IMG/VR virus record: IMGVR_UViG_3300012173_000004 | Span: 39,044-103,043 of that record | DNA from: a virus | Taxonomy: Duplodnaviria; Caudoviricetes | Direction: 5' to 3' (one strand) | DNA: 64,000 bases | Shown: positions 4,869 through 54,143 of the stretch, in pieces | How the letters are laid out: each line of letters begins with the position of its first letter | Position numbering within the stretch: position 1 is the stretch's first letter | Notes under the pieces: generated by a model | The model's database searches: none | What the model was told of the DNA's origin: nothing | The model's input: the letters and a program-made list of their open reading frames with translations, nothing else | Position numbers and translations under genes: made by a program

Positions 4869-6482
4869 ATGTCGCAATTTTCGGATTTGATCTTTAAGCG
4901 TACCTATGCTTTTACTGAAGACGAAACGTGGGAGCAATGCGCTAGGCGGGTATCACATTTCGTTGCCCAAGCAGCGCCACAAGAATGGGCAAAAAGCGAG
5001 CTAGAATATCTTTTCTACAAGGTAATTTCCACCAAAAAGTTCATTCCCGGTGGAAGGTACCTTTATTCAGCCGGCCGTAAGATTCCCCAGTTAAATAACT
5101 GTTTCTTGTTGCGAGCTGAAGATAGTCGTGAAGGTTGGGGTCGTTTAGTTGATCGCCATGTTAACGGCTTGGCAACTGGTGGTGGCTGTGGCACCGAGTA
5201 TTCACAGATACGTGAGAACGGTGCACCCATCAAGGGTTACGGTGGCACAGCTTCAGGTCCCATATCATTGATGGCGATGGTTAATGAAGTCGCCAGGCAT
5301 GTACTTGCAGGTGGAAAGAGACGTTCTGCTCTATGGGCAGGTCTCAATTGGCAGCATCCTGATATTGAAGCTTTTATTTCAGTTAAGAACTGGTCAACTC
5401 AGATGCGTGCCTGTAAAGAGGCAGATTTTAATTTTCCAGCGCCTCTTGACATGACGAATATTTCAGTGGGTTTAGATGACGACTTTTTTGCGGAAGTGCA
5501 TAAGAATCCCAAGGTATGGGATCTCTATTACCGCATCTGCAAATCAATGTGTAAGACTGGCGAGCCAGGGTTCTCTGTTAATTTAGGGAACAGGCGCAAT
5601 GAAACGCTTCGCAATGCATGTACAGAAGTCACGAGTGAATTCGACTCAGATACATGTAACCTTGGCTCCGTCAATCTCAGTCGTATTAGTGATCTTGAAG
5701 AATTAAAAACTGTGACTGCCATTGGTGTGCAGTTTTTGTATTGTGGTACTTTTTTGAGCTGGCTGCCACATCAGGACTTTGTCAATGTTCGTAATAAGCT
5801 TCGGCGTATTGGTATTGGCTTAATGGGCGTGCATGAGTGGTGCTTGAAGAATGATTTACCCTATGCCCCTAGTGATAAGCTGGACCGTTGGCTATTTGAA
5901 TGGCGAGATGCCTCCGCTGAGCAGGCAGCAAATATGGGTCACATTTTTGGATCAGACACCATCCAGCCAATTGCTGTGCGAGCTATTGCACCTACAGGTA
6001 CTATTGGCATCATTGGTGAGACAACCACTGGCATCGAACCTATTTTCTGTGTTGCCTATAAGCGTCGCTTCCTCAATGGTGCAGACGGCAAATGGAAATA
6101 TTCTTACGTCGTTGATCCTACAGCTGAGCGCTTGATACAACAAGGTATCAAGCCAGATGCCATTGAAGATGCTTATGAGCTAGCCCATGACGTTGAACGC
6201 CGCCTTAAAATGCAAGCATTCGTTCAACAATACGTTGATCAGGGCATTTCTTCAACCATCAATATGCCAGCTTGGGGTGAACCTGGTAACAATAATGCCA
6301 AACATTTTGCACAGACTTTATTGAAGTATCTCCCCCAATTGAGAGGTATTACTGTTTATCCTGAAGGTGCTCGTGCGGGCCAGCCTATCACACCCATGAG
6401 TTATGAGGAAGCTATAAAACATAAGGGTGTTGTGTTTGAAGAATCTGGTGATCGCTGTATTGGTGGAACTTGCGGTGTTTGA
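4869..6482 (+). CDS. nrdJ: class II (B12-dependent) ribonucleotide reductase
   Basis: FIPGGR, LNNCF, RRSA, GEPG, NACTE, CNLGS, IAPTGT, TTGIEP, ISSTIN and C-terminal CxxGxC; no small subunit nearby. Confidence 0.9.
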   Translation: MSQFSDLIFKRTYAFTEDETWEQCARRVSHFVAQAAPQEWAKSELEYLFYKVISTKKFIPGGRYLYSAGRKIPQLNNCFLLRAEDSREGWGRLVDRHVNGLATGGGCGTEYSQIRENGAPIKGYGGTASGPISLMAMVNEVARHVLAGGKRRSALWAGLNWQHPDIEAFISVKNWSTQMRACKEADFNFPAPLDMTNISVGLDDDFFAEVHKNPKVWDLYYRICKSMCKTGEPGFSVNLGNRRNETLRNACTEVTSEFDSDTCNLGSVNLSRISDLEELKTVTAIGVQFLYCGTFLSWLPHQDFVNVRNKLRRIGIGLMGVHEWCLKNDLPYAPSDKLDRWLFEWRDASAEQAANMGHIFGSDTIQPIAVRAIAPTGTIGIIGETTTGIEPIFCVAYKRRFLNGADGKWKYSYVVDPTAERLIQQGIKPDAIEDAYELAHDVERRLKMQAFVQQYVDQGISSTINMPAWGEPGNNNAKHFAQTLLKYLPQLRGITVYPEGARAGQPITPMSYEEAIKHKGVVFEESGDRCIGGTCGV

Positions 6483-18888: not shown

Positions 18889-18946
18889 GTGTCGGTAGCT
18901 TAATTGGTAAAGCTCCTGACTGTGGGTTCAAATCTCATCCAACACC
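18889..18946 (+). ncRNA. tRNA-like element lacking the anticodon arm
   Basis: Acceptor GTGTCGG/CCAACAC, D arm TAGCTTAATTGGTAAAGC, T arm GTGGG-TTCAAAT-CTCAT; only 8 nt between D and T arms. Confidence 0.6.
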
Positions 18947-22871: not shown

Positions 22872-23243
22872 AGGGGTGAGGGTATGAGGCTTATTATGGT
22901 GATGTGCTTGTGATAATTGATGCGCCTATATGAATCGACAATTCGCACTGGACGTCTCACATTATAATAACTACATGAACACAACAAACACACAACTAAT
23001 GGGGGTAGTAATTAGCGTCTAAACATCTGACGTTATAGTCTACACATCAAAAACAGCCCTAATAGGCAAAGTGTAGATCAGGTAAGTCCAAATCACTACG
23101 GTTAGACGACCGAAACTGTCCTTGGATTTCAATCCACGCCAAAGCGTTGGTAGCGGCGTATGAGGGATATATAGAGTTCAATGTCCCGAAATTTGAGCAG
23201 CGTGATATGGAGCCAAAAATTTCCAACTATTAAAGGAGTCGTC

Positions 23244-28749: not shown

Positions 28750-28915
28750 AGCCATCGCACGAAAACATTTAGGAATTCCCACCCTAAAACCCAGGGGAAG
28801 GGATTGTTTAGATTTCCACGAAATGTCAGTCTGGCGTCTGAAGGACGCCCTGCAGAACGCCTATGACTTGGGCAAGCTGGTAGGCTCAGAGTCAAGGGAG
28901 ACAAGCCATGGATGA
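28732..28915 (+). CDS. DUF6900-like small phage protein
   Basis: IARKHLGI.TL..RGRD.LDFHE.SVW.LK.AL..AY..G. Confidence 0.55.
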
Positions 28916-29261
28916 AGTGCAAAAATTAGAAATGTATTGCACAGTCTGTAACTGTGTGCATGTGCACAAATTTGTCATGGACTTTGGCGAACATGAAGTT
29001 TGGCAATGCGACGCTTGTGATCTGCGTGAACCCCGTAAGAAGGGCGAAGTTCAACTTCAAAAACAAGAGCCTGTTGCACCAGCACCTATTATAACTAAGA
29101 AGGTGCCATCTTCCTCAGATCCAGATGTGGAATACACGCTCACCAAAGATAGTTCCGGGTGGCGTTGTGACTGCCAAGGCTTCAAGTATCGGCAGAATTG
29201 TCGCCATGTTAAAGAACAAGTGAAAGGGGAACGCAATGGCAGCAAAGATCAAAACGCTTAA
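28908..29261 (+). CDS. zinc ribbon plus SWIM zinc-finger protein
   Basis: CTVC..CDAC and W.CDC.GF.YR..CRHV. Confidence 0.75.
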   Translation: MDEVQKLEMYCTVCNCVHVHKFVMDFGEHEVWQCDACDLREPRKKGEVQLQKQEPVAPAPIITKKVPSSSDPDVEYTLTKDSSGWRCDCQGFKYRQNCRHVKEQVKGERNGSKDQNA

Positions 29262-34517: not shown

Positions 34518-34605
34518 GGGGTGGTGACGGAATGGTAACGTACCGGACTGTAAATCCGTAGTCGTGGATTCACACGTGGAGGTTCGAGTCCTCCCTACCC
34601 CACCA
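34518..34605 (+). tRNA. tRNA-Tyr (GTA)
   Basis: Acceptor GGGGTGG/CTACCCC + ACCA; anticodon loop CTGTAAA; long variable arm; T arm GGAGG-TTCGAGT-CCTCC. Confidence 0.93.
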
Positions 34606-51602: not shown

Positions 51603-52058
51603 ATGTACACAATTGAAAAAGATATTAGTTGGGAAATGGGCCACAGGCTTACACACCATGAAGGTAAGTGCTTTAATTTACACGGCCATTCCTACCGTGC
51701 AGTCATTACGTTGAGTGCTGAAAAACTCGACAAGAATGGTATGGTCGTTGACTTCTACCATTTCAAAAAGGTCAAAGATTACATTGATAAATACTGGGAT
51801 CATGCCCTAATGCTTAACATGGAGGATCCTATCGTAGCTGTTATTAATACTAGAAAAATGTTTAACGTGCTTAAGCGCAACCTTAAATTGTGCCTAGTGA
51901 ATGAAGACCCCACCGCAGAAAACATTGCAAGGTGTCTGGCAGATGTAACACGTAGTTTACTGGATCAAGAGATGGGAGATCATGCTTCAGTGACGAGTGT
52001 CACTGTATACGAGACGGCGACGAGTTCTGCAACTTATGTGAAAGAAGGATTTCTATAA
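51603..52058 (+). CDS. queD: 6-carboxytetrahydropterin synthase
   Basis: GHRL..H.GKC.NLHGHSY, GMVVDF, WDH, PTAEN, YET. Confidence 0.93.
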   Translation: MYTIEKDISWEMGHRLTHHEGKCFNLHGHSYRAVITLSAEKLDKNGMVVDFYHFKKVKDYIDKYWDHALMLNMEDPIVAVINTRKMFNVLKRNLKLCLVNEDPTAENIARCLADVTRSLLDQEMGDHASVTSVTVYETATSSATYVKEGFL

Positions 52059-52762
52059 TGTCAGCAACTGCTTGTTCCCGTTGTGGTGCTAAACTACTAG
52101 AACAATCTGCTTCAACATTATGTGAGAAGTGTCATGGAGCCTGGCTAGATGAAAGGCAACAACTATCCCGTTTCTATGATGTACCTATCAAAATGATTGA
52201 AGGTATTAGGATGGTGCTTGACGGCTTACAAGAAGCGTACCCTGCTTTTAAGCCTCAAGCAAACCACATGGATCAGACTCCAGCACGGGTAGGTAGGATG
52301 TTCTTAGAAATTTGTTGGGGTCTGGGCGTTGATCCTGCTAAGCATTTAGGCACGACATTTGAGGAGACCCAATATGGTGGAATTGTACTCGTCTCAGGAA
52401 TCCAGTTTACGAGCCTATGCATGCATCATTTTGCGATCTTCAGAGGTATTGCACACGTTGGCTATATCCCTAATAGACGCATCGTCGGCCTTTCAAAAAT
52501 TAACAGAGTCGTTGAAATACTTGCAGCTCGTCCTCAAGTCCAAGAACAGCTCACCTTCCAGATAGCGGACCTATTACACTCAACACTCAAGCCGAAAGGG
52601 ACGATGGTCGTCTTAGAGGGGAGCCACGATTGTATTGAGGTTAGAGGTGTACGCTCAAAAGGTTCTATCACAAAAACGTCAGAAGTACGAGGTATTTTCC
52701 ATGACAACAAATTCAACTGTAAGGATGAGTTTATGGCTTTGATAGAAACTAAGAAAGGATAG
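52058..52762 (+). CDS. folE: GTP cyclohydrolase I with extra N-terminal Zn ribbon
   Basis: TPARV, SLCMHH, GLSKINR, RPQVQE, H.C..RG; N-terminal CSRC..CEKC. Confidence 0.92.
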   Translation: MSATACSRCGAKLLEQSASTLCEKCHGAWLDERQQLSRFYDVPIKMIEGIRMVLDGLQEAYPAFKPQANHMDQTPARVGRMFLEICWGLGVDPAKHLGTTFEETQYGGIVLVSGIQFTSLCMHHFAIFRGIAHVGYIPNRRIVGLSKINRVVEILAARPQVQEQLTFQIADLLHSTLKPKGTMVVLEGSHDCIEVRGVRSKGSITKTSEVRGIFHDNKFNCKDEFMALIETKKG

Positions 52763-52870
52763 TTATAATGGAGATGGCGTTCGTCCTACTAGGAGTTTCA
52801 ATAGGCATCAGCATTACAACCATATACTTCCATTGGTTGAAGCACATAAACAGGTTCTAAATTATAAAAG

Positions 52871-53040
52871 AGGGTGCACCGGGTTGAGCATATATTCGAG
52901 CACATTTAACCTTTGCACAATGTACTTAAGCCAGTACGTAGTAGACGCGATGACTCGCAGATGTCCATGATCTACGTTTAAACTGAGCTGTACCAGCACA
53001 TTTAATTTTTGCACTTCGGCTCTTAAGCCCGGTGCACCCT
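52871..53040 (+). ncRNA. 170-nt rod-shaped structured element with symmetric central bubble
   Basis: 13-bp terminal inverted repeat, inner hairpin, 20-nt direct repeat on both sides of the bubble. Confidence 0.6.
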
Positions 53041-53042
53041 TA

Positions 53043-53199
53043 GGGCGTTGAAAGTGATTGACGAGAACGGGTGATCAGATATCTCCTGTCCGGCGGTGTA
53101 CAAAACAACTACCCGATGGCCAGGTAGAGACCGAAACTTGCACTGGGCTACATGATCACAAGTGTAGTCGCGATTCTGTCAAGATCAATTAGCGTGCCT
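53043..53199 (+). ncRNA. multibranch structured element
   Basis: Closing stem plus CGGTGTA/TGCACTG, CTACC/GGTAG and GCTACAT/GTGTAGT arms. Confidence 0.5.
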
Positions 53200-53202
53200 C
53201 GT

Positions 53203-53294
53203 AGCATCCCTGTGGTTTACTCGTTAGCGTACTTTTCCACAGGGCTCATGAAAGCTTAGGCTTTTTTGAGCTTAAAAAGGGCCATATAGATGCT
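53203..53294 (+). ncRNA. three-way-junction structured element
   Basis: AGCATC/GATGCT, CCCTGTGG/CCACAGGG and GCTCA..AAAGC/GCTTT..TGAGC pairings. Confidence 0.45.
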
Positions 53295-53312
53295 GTGTGT
53301 GTGTGTGTGTGT
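53294..53312. repeat. (TG)9 microsatellite
   Basis: Read directly from sequence. Confidence 0.95.
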
Positions 53313-53432
53313 ATTATTTATATAAGAACTCAGTTCTAAAGCCCTGAGCTTTTAGAATCTGGAAGACGATAAGCGATACCGCCGAAGACGGCGAAAGTGG
53401 CGAAGACGCCACTTCTACGAAAGAGGGAAACA

Positions 53433-54143
53433 GTGGAACTTATAACACCCTACGCCCGCATCCTCCCACCAGTCAATATCAATTCAGGCAGCACTTGGCC
53501 GGGCACCAACATCATAACATCTTTCACCTCTGATGATGGACGCTTTCTTCTCAAACGTATTGAATATTGCGCCCGCATCAGTCATCGTTCAGAAGATGCA
53601 CCTGCTGATACTGAACGCTTTCTTCGTTCAGTCATTATCAATCATGGTGATTGGTCAGTTGTAGAGCATTGTTCTATCAGTGTGGAATTTCTCGTTGATC
53701 GAGGAATTACCCATGAGCTAGTCCGTCATCGAATCTTTTCGTTTACCCAGGAGTCTACTCGTTTTGTGAACTATTTAAAACGAGTCAGTGCTCGCTTTAT
53801 CTTGCCGCCCTTTCAAGAGGAAGATAGGTTAGGTGCTTCAGGTGTTTGGCATAATACTATCAATGCCTGTCTCGAAGGGTACACACAACTTATTAAGCTA
53901 GGTTGTTCACCACAGATTGCACGATCAGTTTTACCTAATGCGTTGTCGAGTAAGATCGTCACGACTGGTAATCTTCGCCAGTGGCGGCATTTCTTCATTA
54001 TGCGCACGACGAAAGAAACACACCCACAGATGCGAGAAGTTACTGTGCCACTTTTGGCTGAAGTTCAGCGAGTGATTCCAATTCTTTTTGAGGATATTGA
54101 AACAGGTGCATCACAGCGCGACAATCTTAGATTACCAAGATAG
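53433..54143 (+). CDS. thyX: flavin-dependent thymidylate synthase
   Basis: SVVEH, ELVRHRIFSFTQESTR, ARSVLP, NLRQWRHF; GTG start after GAGGG. Confidence 0.93.
   Translation: MELITPYARILPPVNINSGSTWPGTNIITSFTSDDGRFLLKRIEYCARISHRSEDAPADTERFLRSVIINHGDWSVVEHCSISVEFLVDRGITHELVRHRIFSFTQESTRFVNYLKRVSARFILPPFQEEDRLGASGVWHNTINACLEGYTQLIKLGCSPQIARSVLPNALSSKIVTTGNLRQWRHFFIMRTTKETHPQMREVTVPLLAEVQRVIPILFEDIETGASQRDNLRLPR

Follow-up and report, generated by a model that had tools for sequence, protein, structure and literature searches.

[quoted passage not shown] The rod is very probably a single-strand structure maintained by selection as part of this larger element, which most probably acts as a + strand RNA. 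The element represents an undescribed family of structured RNAs, although its general kind, phage non-coding RNA that is possibly origin-associated, is known. The best overall explanation, which is advanced tentatively, is that the rod forms the 5′ domain of a ∼400-nt element, most probably a + strand RNA, that would be an origin-region transcript.

The rod lies within a 634-nt gap that lacks credible ORFs, between folE (52058–52762) and thyX (53433–54143), and almost all of the genes in the window are carried on the + strand. Genes encoding SbcD-like, topoisomerase, SbcC/SMC-like, QueD and FolE proteins are found upstream, and those for ThyX, an 83-aa protein, a UvsW-like helicase, DnaB, a primase and PolA downstream. 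Homologous loci were reached only via look-ups of the FolE and ThyX proteins. FolE of the window phage shares 76, 75, and 86% identity with its counterparts in L009, L010, and L015 (the last over a truncated gene), and ThyX 78% with that of L016 and 72% with those of L017/L018; L006–L008 are identical copies of the window phage. Six lineages of related, uncultivated phages were compared, namely the window, L009, L010, L015, L016, and L018, two of which are close to each other. The folE-gap-thyX arrangement recurs in the relatives with a gap of 580–655 nt; the gaps of the lineages can be aligned over their whole length, and a rod of 123–185 nt is located at the same place in every one of them.

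No match to the rod region was obtained by blastn against 50,697 phage records, nor by exact-pattern scans for the 20-mer, the 21/25-nt loop and the invariant box (described below) in viral, metagenome and genome collections. Rfam at the gathering threshold gave nothing relevant in the window, and at E ≤ 10 no family matched either positions 52600–53500 or the loci of L009, L010, L013, L015, L016, and L018, 6S RNA included, which agrees with the preliminary description, where the rod had not been recognized as a described family. Elsewhere in the window, a tRNA-Tyr (GTA) gene is found at 34518–34605 and a second, weak Rfam tRNA-like element (37 bits), which was not called by ARAGORN, at 18889–18946. 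Relatives have a folE that is split or truncated at the N terminus (L015 2785–3495 encodes 56-aa and 164-aa products), and genes for endonuclease VII-like proteins have entered the module at various points (L009 2191–2511; L021 4567–4995), which suggests homing-endonuclease traffic around the locus.

The rod and its covariation in six lineages

The features of the rod and of the sequences that flank it are listed in Table 1. The outer stem, the 20-mer pair in the central bubble and the inner pairs that had been described for the rod were all confirmed, the first two with their coordinates and the inner pairs by their recovery in the minimum free energy (MFE) fold. The two 20-mers are identical at 18/20 positions and constitute the sole two matches in the window at ≤3 mismatches, where 0.05 would be expected.

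Table 1. Positions of the rod, the downstream modules and the flanking signals in the window.
Feature	Sequence	Position	Strand	Remarks
A/T box	TAAATTATAAA	52858–52868	+	Close to rod base on its 5′ side; candidate −10 element or mark of the 5′ boundary
Rod outer stem, 5′ arm (H1)	AGGGTGCACCGGG	52871–52883	+	MFE fold; covaries with 3′ arm in six lineages
Helix H2, 5′ strand	GAGC	52886–52889	+	After 2-nt junction UU/UC; pairs with GCTC at 53019–53022
20-mer copy 1, central bubble 5′ strand		52899–52918	+	Lineage-specific copy of 3′ strand motif
Rod apical domain	GTAC...GTAC closing pairs, CAGT/ACTG, ACGTAG/CTACGT, GCGA-TGAC-TCGC	52922–52993	+	
20-mer copy 2, central bubble 3′ strand		52995–53014	+	Conserved version: CAGCAY, U-rich stretch, UGCAM
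Helix H2, 3′ strand and 3′ junction	GCTC + TTAAG	53019–53027	+	Junction conserved; CATAAG in relatives
Rod outer stem, 3′ arm	CCCGGTGCACCCT	53028–53040	+	13/13 complementary to 5′ arm
Module 2, multibranch	Closing helix GGGCGTTGA (53043–53051) with TTAGCGTGCC (53189–53198)	53043–53198	+	RNAalifold
Single-stranded block	TTGACGAGAACGGGTGATCAGAT	53058–53080	+	Inside module 2; invariant in window, L009, L010
Module 3 hairpin	Stem CCCTGTGG/CCACAGGG	53208–53244	+	8-bp stem; conserved 21-nt loop
A-tract/U-tract hairpin	CTCA..AAAGC-TTAG-GCTTT..TGAG	53245–53271	+	Possible 3′ end or weak terminator
Invariant box	TTAAAAAGGGCCATATAGATG	53272–53292	.	Unique in window; conserved in six lineages
(TG)9 tract		to 53311	.	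After invariant box; (TG)9–10, length conserved in six lineages
AT-rich patch	−10-like TATAAG(AAC)	53312–53329	.	TAnAAGAAC conserved after variable AT-rich stretch

The + strand of the rod folds with an MFE of −57.7 kcal/mol (z = −5.25; none of 200 shuffles as stable), and the complementary strand slightly better (−65.1 kcal/mol; z = −5.31). The raw energy is ∼2.4 sd below the mean of 170-nt windows genome-wide, where others are more extreme. It is the conservation of the rod and not its raw folding energy that marks it as non-random, and, given the folds of both strands and the genome scan, a single-sequence fold settles neither the function of the rod nor its strand.

Across the six lineages, 77 of the 78 outer stem pairs are Watson-Crick, and two or three pair types occur at 11/13 positions. 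The 5′ arm reads GGGTGCACCGGG in the window, GAGTGCACTAGG in L009, GAGTGCACGGAG in L010, GGGTGTGCTGGG in L016, and GGGTGTATTGGG in L018, in each case with a matching 3′ arm; that of L015 (AGATGCGGCAGTAG) is unrelated in sequence to those of the other lineages and is likewise matched by its 3′ arm. In the five alignable sequences the stem is 100% paired with 7/13 pairs changed on both sides, values that were reached by 0/500 shuffles, and sliding the partner by 1–3 columns reduced pairing to 14–51%. The junction above the outer stem is conserved and asymmetric, 5′ U-Y lying opposite 3′ Y-W-U-A-A-G, and beyond it helix H2 also covaries (GAGC/GCUC, GAGU/ACUC in L010, GGC/GCC in L015). The check for covariation in homologous phage loci that the preliminary description had proposed was therefore positive for both helices, and the compensatory changes in the outer stem across six lineages indicate that the structure of the rod is under selection. 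Between the window, L009, and L010 the apical domain hardly differs, a few compensatory changes being visible in the aligned sequences, whereas L016 and L018 have a shorter, different hairpin in its place.

An RNA-level structure had been proposed on the strength of bulges and G-U pairs. The compensatory changes in the six lineages uphold single-strand structure, but the G-U argument carries little weight for the rod alone, as the MFE fold of the + strand rod contains only one G·U pair. Because the outer stem is almost free of G·U pairs and, in 5/6 lineages, the fold of the minus strand equals or slightly surpasses that of the + strand, the rod by itself cannot distinguish RNA from single-stranded DNA (ssDNA) or one strand from the other.

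The bubble measures 18–32 nt per strand across the family, and in all six lineages its strands are composed of 72% A+U, 9.5% G, and 19% C on the + strand. This poverty in G suggests that the + strand has been selected to stay unpaired, and it accounts for the complementary, G-richer strand folding slightly better through G·U pairs. The 3′ bubble strand is recognizable in the window, L010, L016, and L018, and loosely in L015, whereas the 5′ strands of the relatives are unrelated to one another and contain no copy of the 20-mer. What the family has in common is an open bubble that is large, A/U-rich and G-poor, and not the duplicated 20-mer, which, on the simplest reading, would have arisen by recent lineage-specific copying of the 3′ bubble motif to the opposite side. 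A loop with two-fold symmetry, in which both strands carry one 20-mer, is accordingly no property of the family, and the 20-mers were rejected as a conserved symmetric site. Since only the 3′ bubble strand has been kept by the relatives, a conserved homodimer-binding site is unlikely, and the suggestion that the symmetry marks a decoy or scaffold for a homodimeric protein is not sustained. A post-hoc motif, GCAY-N7-14-GCAM, is found on both bubble strands in the window and L016 only. With the (UG)n tract that lies downstream, the bubble strands paired overall no better than shuffled sequences.

When the rest of the genome was searched for sequences antisense to the element, 11–12-mers at chance level and one 15-mer were obtained. 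The latter is a perfect 15-nt antisense match between the second 20-mer (match at 53003–53017) and 28914–28928, which corresponds to codons 3–7 of an ORF whose start, at 28909, is preceded by a GGGAGA ribosome-binding site; about 0.05–0.1 such matches are expected by chance.

Modules 2 and 3 and the sequences downstream

The rod is joined to module 2 by a linker of 2–3 nt. The closing helix of module 2 shows exchanges between lineages (G·U to A-U, C-G to U-A, G-C to A-U, and U·G to C-G, on the + strand), and the module 3 stem covaries in four versions, those other than the one in Table 1 being CCTTGTGG/CCACAAGG, TCACATGG/CCATGTGA, and CCTGAGG/CCTCAGG, around a 21-nt loop that is invariant in three lineages. 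In the A/U-tract hairpin that follows, the inner stem is changed to AAGAC/GTCTT in L015 with G·U pairs on the + strand, and, taking the module 3 and A/U-tract hairpins together, G·U pairs are present in L015 and L009. The G·U pairs of modules 2 and 3 correspond to C·A mismatches on the other strand, which favors a + strand RNA. A covariance model of the 3′ module matches all members of the family and nothing else among the sequences compared. Two further candidate helices were discarded: a hairpin drawn by RNAalifold (GGCTTTTTT/AAAAAGGGCC) is unsupported in L015, where the alternative A/U-tract hairpin is supported, and a closing helix AGCATC/GATGCT is not conserved, GATGGT being found in relatives. 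Two copies of the motif CUCGU(U)AGC(A/G)U are present, one at 53205–53216 in the linker that leads to the module 3 hairpin, the other at 53221–53231 in the conserved loop of this hairpin; they may represent a protein-binding or tertiary-contact motif.

No small ORF is conserved in the element across the lineages, and neither a + strand consensus promoter (sigma-70 −35/−10) nor a canonical terminator was called in 52600–53500. The A/U-tract hairpin was not called a canonical terminator by the scanner, and this weak hairpin and the A/T box at the rod base are the only boundary signals. The A/T box is identical in the window, L009, L010, L016, and L018 despite differing upstream sequence, a conservation for which coding offers no explanation. 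Between folE and the rod, a 30-codon ORF at 52768–52860 that would encode a hydrophobic peptide (MEMAFVLLGVSIGISITTIYFHWLKHINRF) is inserted in the window lineage only.

The end of the element is followed by the invariant box, the (TG)n tract and the AT-rich patch. That a simple repeat should be conserved in length argues for a role at the DNA level, such as Z-DNA-prone unwinding or as a promoter spacer. The invariant box does not recur in the window, as a T7-type promoter would be expected to do, and no match to a T7-like RNA polymerase (PF00940) was found in the genome of 103 kb (control genomes also gave none), so that the box (..CCATATAG..) was rejected as a promoter of that type. It was also rejected as a copy of a phage motif, GAGCCA(C/A)WAATT, with which it shares only a GGCCA core at the wrong spacing and which is absent from the related loci fetched. 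The latter motif is present in 10 + strand copies within window positions 23210–47985 (12 matches against 1.7 expected), and is followed 6–10 nt later by an AT-rich hexamer, in many cases immediately ahead of a start codon; on its sequence it resembles a class of promoters specific to the phage.

Two tandem mini-hairpins, CGCCG-AAGA-CGGCG (53380–53393) and GTGGCG-AAGA-CGCCAC (53397–53412), with an identical loop closed by C-G/G-C, immediately precede the ribosome-binding site of thyX. In five lineages 6/12 of their pairs are changed on both sides, and they are a candidate loop-specific protein operator for thyX translation.

The more distant relatives L013 and L021 lack thyX but retain a large gap ahead of the helicase-DnaB operon, and both have a GT-tract and an AT-rich block, with the identical AT-rich sequence TATATAATTAATATAGT, at the same place (L013, ∼1575–1615; L021, ∼5790–5840). 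The occurrence of this block ahead of the helicase operon in phages without thyX indicates that the constant partner of the element is the head of the replisome operon and not thyX or folE. In L013 there is a 196-nt rod with an 11-bp closing stem; it starts AGAGATG, as in L015, and the sequence after it recalls the beginning of module 2, which is suggestive of the same element in a distant relative. Searches for modules 2 and 3 in L013, L014, L020, L021, and G001–G003 with HMM and covariance models were negative, and the gaps in these genomes do not fold unusually well.

Possible roles of the element

An origin-region transcript ranks first among the roles considered, as a possibility that draws on position and analogy. 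It is placed there by the position of the element, the GT/AT-rich block, a UvsW-like RNA-DNA helicase encoded two genes downstream and the precedent of phage c2 (see below). Under this proposal, a non-coding RNA would be made just upstream of the GT/AT-rich unwinding region, its fold would control transcription-mediated initiation through R-loop or primer formation, and the rod would serve as a rigid recognition or folding module. Transcription-primed origins would have a non-coding, structure-dependent transcript beside an unwinding region; observed at the locus are a non-coding region, conserved structure, and a GT/AT block with replisome genes downstream. The AT-rich patch of the window phage, at only ∼18 bp, counts against an origin, as does the failure to find a consensus promoter or terminator on the + strand, and the GC skew at the locus is monotonic with no inflection and is uninformative as an origin marker. 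A more specific proposal, which must be considered distinctly unlikely, is that the rod mimics melted promoter or origin DNA, its open bubble recruiting RNA polymerase, primase or helicase and so licensing initiation at the Z-DNA-prone (TG)10/AT-rich element.

The element could instead be an independent non-coding RNA of ∼400 nt that acts in trans, has a promoter of its own as well as a weak terminator, and binds or sequesters a protein or host factor; included here is a 6S-like RNA polymerase trap, in which melted promoter DNA would be imitated by the open bubble of the rod. The conserved A/T box at its 5′ edge and the U-run hairpin at its 3′ edge are in keeping with such an RNA, as are the conserved 21-nt loop, the 23-nt block and the twice-occurring CUCGU(U)AGCRU. 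The 6S-like version can further draw on the stem, large open bubble and stem of the rod, on its 6S-like size and on the G-poor bubble, as expected of a region that is kept open. Against this, the six homologues gave no match to 6S or any other Rfam family at E ≤ 10, the 3′ hairpin is no canonical terminator and the rod is fused to more modules through the short linker; the closing stem beside the bubble is only 13+4 bp, and neither the 5′ bubble strand nor the apical domain is conserved. A trans-acting RNA is therefore regarded as a weaker candidate than an origin-region transcript. An intercistronic part of a long folE-to-thyX mRNA, active in processing or stability (through RNase III/E sites, or by 3′ protection of the upstream message) or as a regulatory leader for the replisome operon, for example by antitermination, is unlikely. 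With all of the genes on one strand, read-through transcription is probable, and no clear promoter or terminator was found; the Watson-Crick lower stem, internal loop and short upper helix of the rod are like T7 RNase III signals, and the covarying AAGA-loop hairpins just before the thyX ribosome-binding site add two more structures to such a message. However, the conserved long loops and multibranch domain exceed what a processing hairpin needs, the coaxial duplex beside the junction extends over a mere 4 bp on its upper side, and a similar position is kept in L013, which has no thyX.

It is very unlikely that the structure acts at the level of DNA, with the rod forming in ssDNA of either strand at or near an origin, where loading or priming would take place, and the 20-mers serving as protein-binding repeats (iterons). 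Precedents for structured ssDNA are the single-strand origins of rolling-circle plasmids and the minus-strand origin of filamentous phages. The almost exclusively Watson-Crick outer stem and the equal folding of both strands would suit this arrangement, as would a locus inside the replication module that adjoins the GT-tract and AT-rich block. The module 3 loop also contains TAGCGT, the CS-6 hexamer of ssoA origins, but a 6-mer coincidence is likely and the hexamer is TTGCGT in L016 and L015. The helices of modules 2 and 3, in contrast, use conserved + strand G·U pairs that become C·A mismatches on the other strand, and a phage that encodes DnaB and a primase needs no dedicated single-strand origin. 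Nor do the 20-mers resemble origin iterons, which form a conserved set of at least three regular direct repeats: there are two copies only, 96 bp apart, and none of the five other lineages has the pair, so that the possibility of their being merely dsDNA sites of this kind, raised in the preliminary description, was not borne out. Lastly, a chance hairpin, a non-functional spacer or what is left of a mobile element that had terminal inverted repeats would be compatible with a raw folding energy that is not the most extreme in the genome and with a gap that tolerates insertions, as seen from the 30-codon ORF beside the rod in the window lineage. Compensatory changes at 11/13 stem positions, without a mismatch, in six lineages at a fixed locus effectively refute a chance hairpin, and transposon ends would conserve sequence and not covary; there is also no second copy of the rod in the genome. 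This group of explanations can practically be discounted.

Very few phage non-coding RNAs of such size have covariation support, and the origins and replication control of almost all uncultivated phages are unknown. The locus provides a compact candidate, with three covarying modules, an invariant box and a length-conserved (TG)n tract at the head of a replisome operon. Were the element an origin transcript, transcription-primed initiation with a structure-dependent RNA would be extended to a new phage clade and origin assays would gain a defined element, and were the rod a mimic of melted DNA, a 6S- or sso-like recognition principle would be embedded in a large, undescribed replication-control RNA of a dsDNA phage. 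A trans-acting RNA would constitute a new large phage RNA family. In either case, a family that is absent from Rfam is now open to modeling.

Comparison with known systems

In common with 6S RNA (Rfam RF00013 and related families), the rod has a closing stem, a large open central bubble, an apical stem-loop and a similar size, and the stem-bubble-stem shape is found in all six rods; the bubble is much larger, with 18–32 nt per strand, its 5′ strand and the apical part are variable, and the closing stem of 13+4 bp is short. The rod is, moreover, fused to ∼230 nt of additional conserved structure. The likeness to 6S RNA that had been noted thus holds for overall size and layout but does not extend to membership, as no covariance model (RF00013, 6S-Flavo, and others) matched the window or its homologues and the rod is linked to further modules instead of forming a separate gene of ∼180 nt. 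An ssoA-type single-strand origin was likewise rejected, since TAGCGT is located in the module 3 loop and not in the rod, is lost in L016 and L015, and G·U-dependent helices favor RNA.

In T7 early mRNA, RNase III signals consisting of a lower stem, an internal loop and an upper helix are located between genes. The rod resembles these hairpins (R1.1 type) in being an intercistronic stem-internal loop-stem structure in a polycistronic phage region and in its strictly Watson-Crick lower stem, but it is three times larger, with a 4-bp helix above the junction and a far larger bubble. The GOLLD and ROOL RNAs are also large, multi-domain, covarying non-coding RNAs carried by phages, and their biochemical function is unknown; the element described here is smaller, is not found beside tRNA genes and has no Rfam match.

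What the element would share with ColE1 RNA II and the oriF/oriG origin transcripts of T4, which are R-loop primers, is a structured transcript that ends at or runs into an easily unwound region beside replication genes. In T4, UvsW removes origin R-loops. There is no homology to these systems, and no sign of a persistent hybrid, RNase H processing or a middle-mode promoter.

A precedent is offered by the c2-type origin of lactococcal Ceduovirus phages, a non-coding region flanked by two promoters from which an untranslated transcript, PE1-T, that has been implicated in initiation is produced (PMC7150918). Both the length and the structure of PE1-T are needed, and origin types cannot be aligned between groups (PMC7150918). 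The origin function and transcription of c2 have been demonstrated, and those of the present element are predicted; there is no sequence or structural homology between the two, and nothing equivalent to the (TG)n tract or the invariant box has been described for c2. The likeness lies in a non-coding region of several hundred nt without ORFs or ribosome-binding sites, placed immediately ahead of the genes that open an operon and seemingly flanked by two promoter-like signals, in which the length and structure of the RNA would outweigh its sequence and whose lineages are barely alignable.
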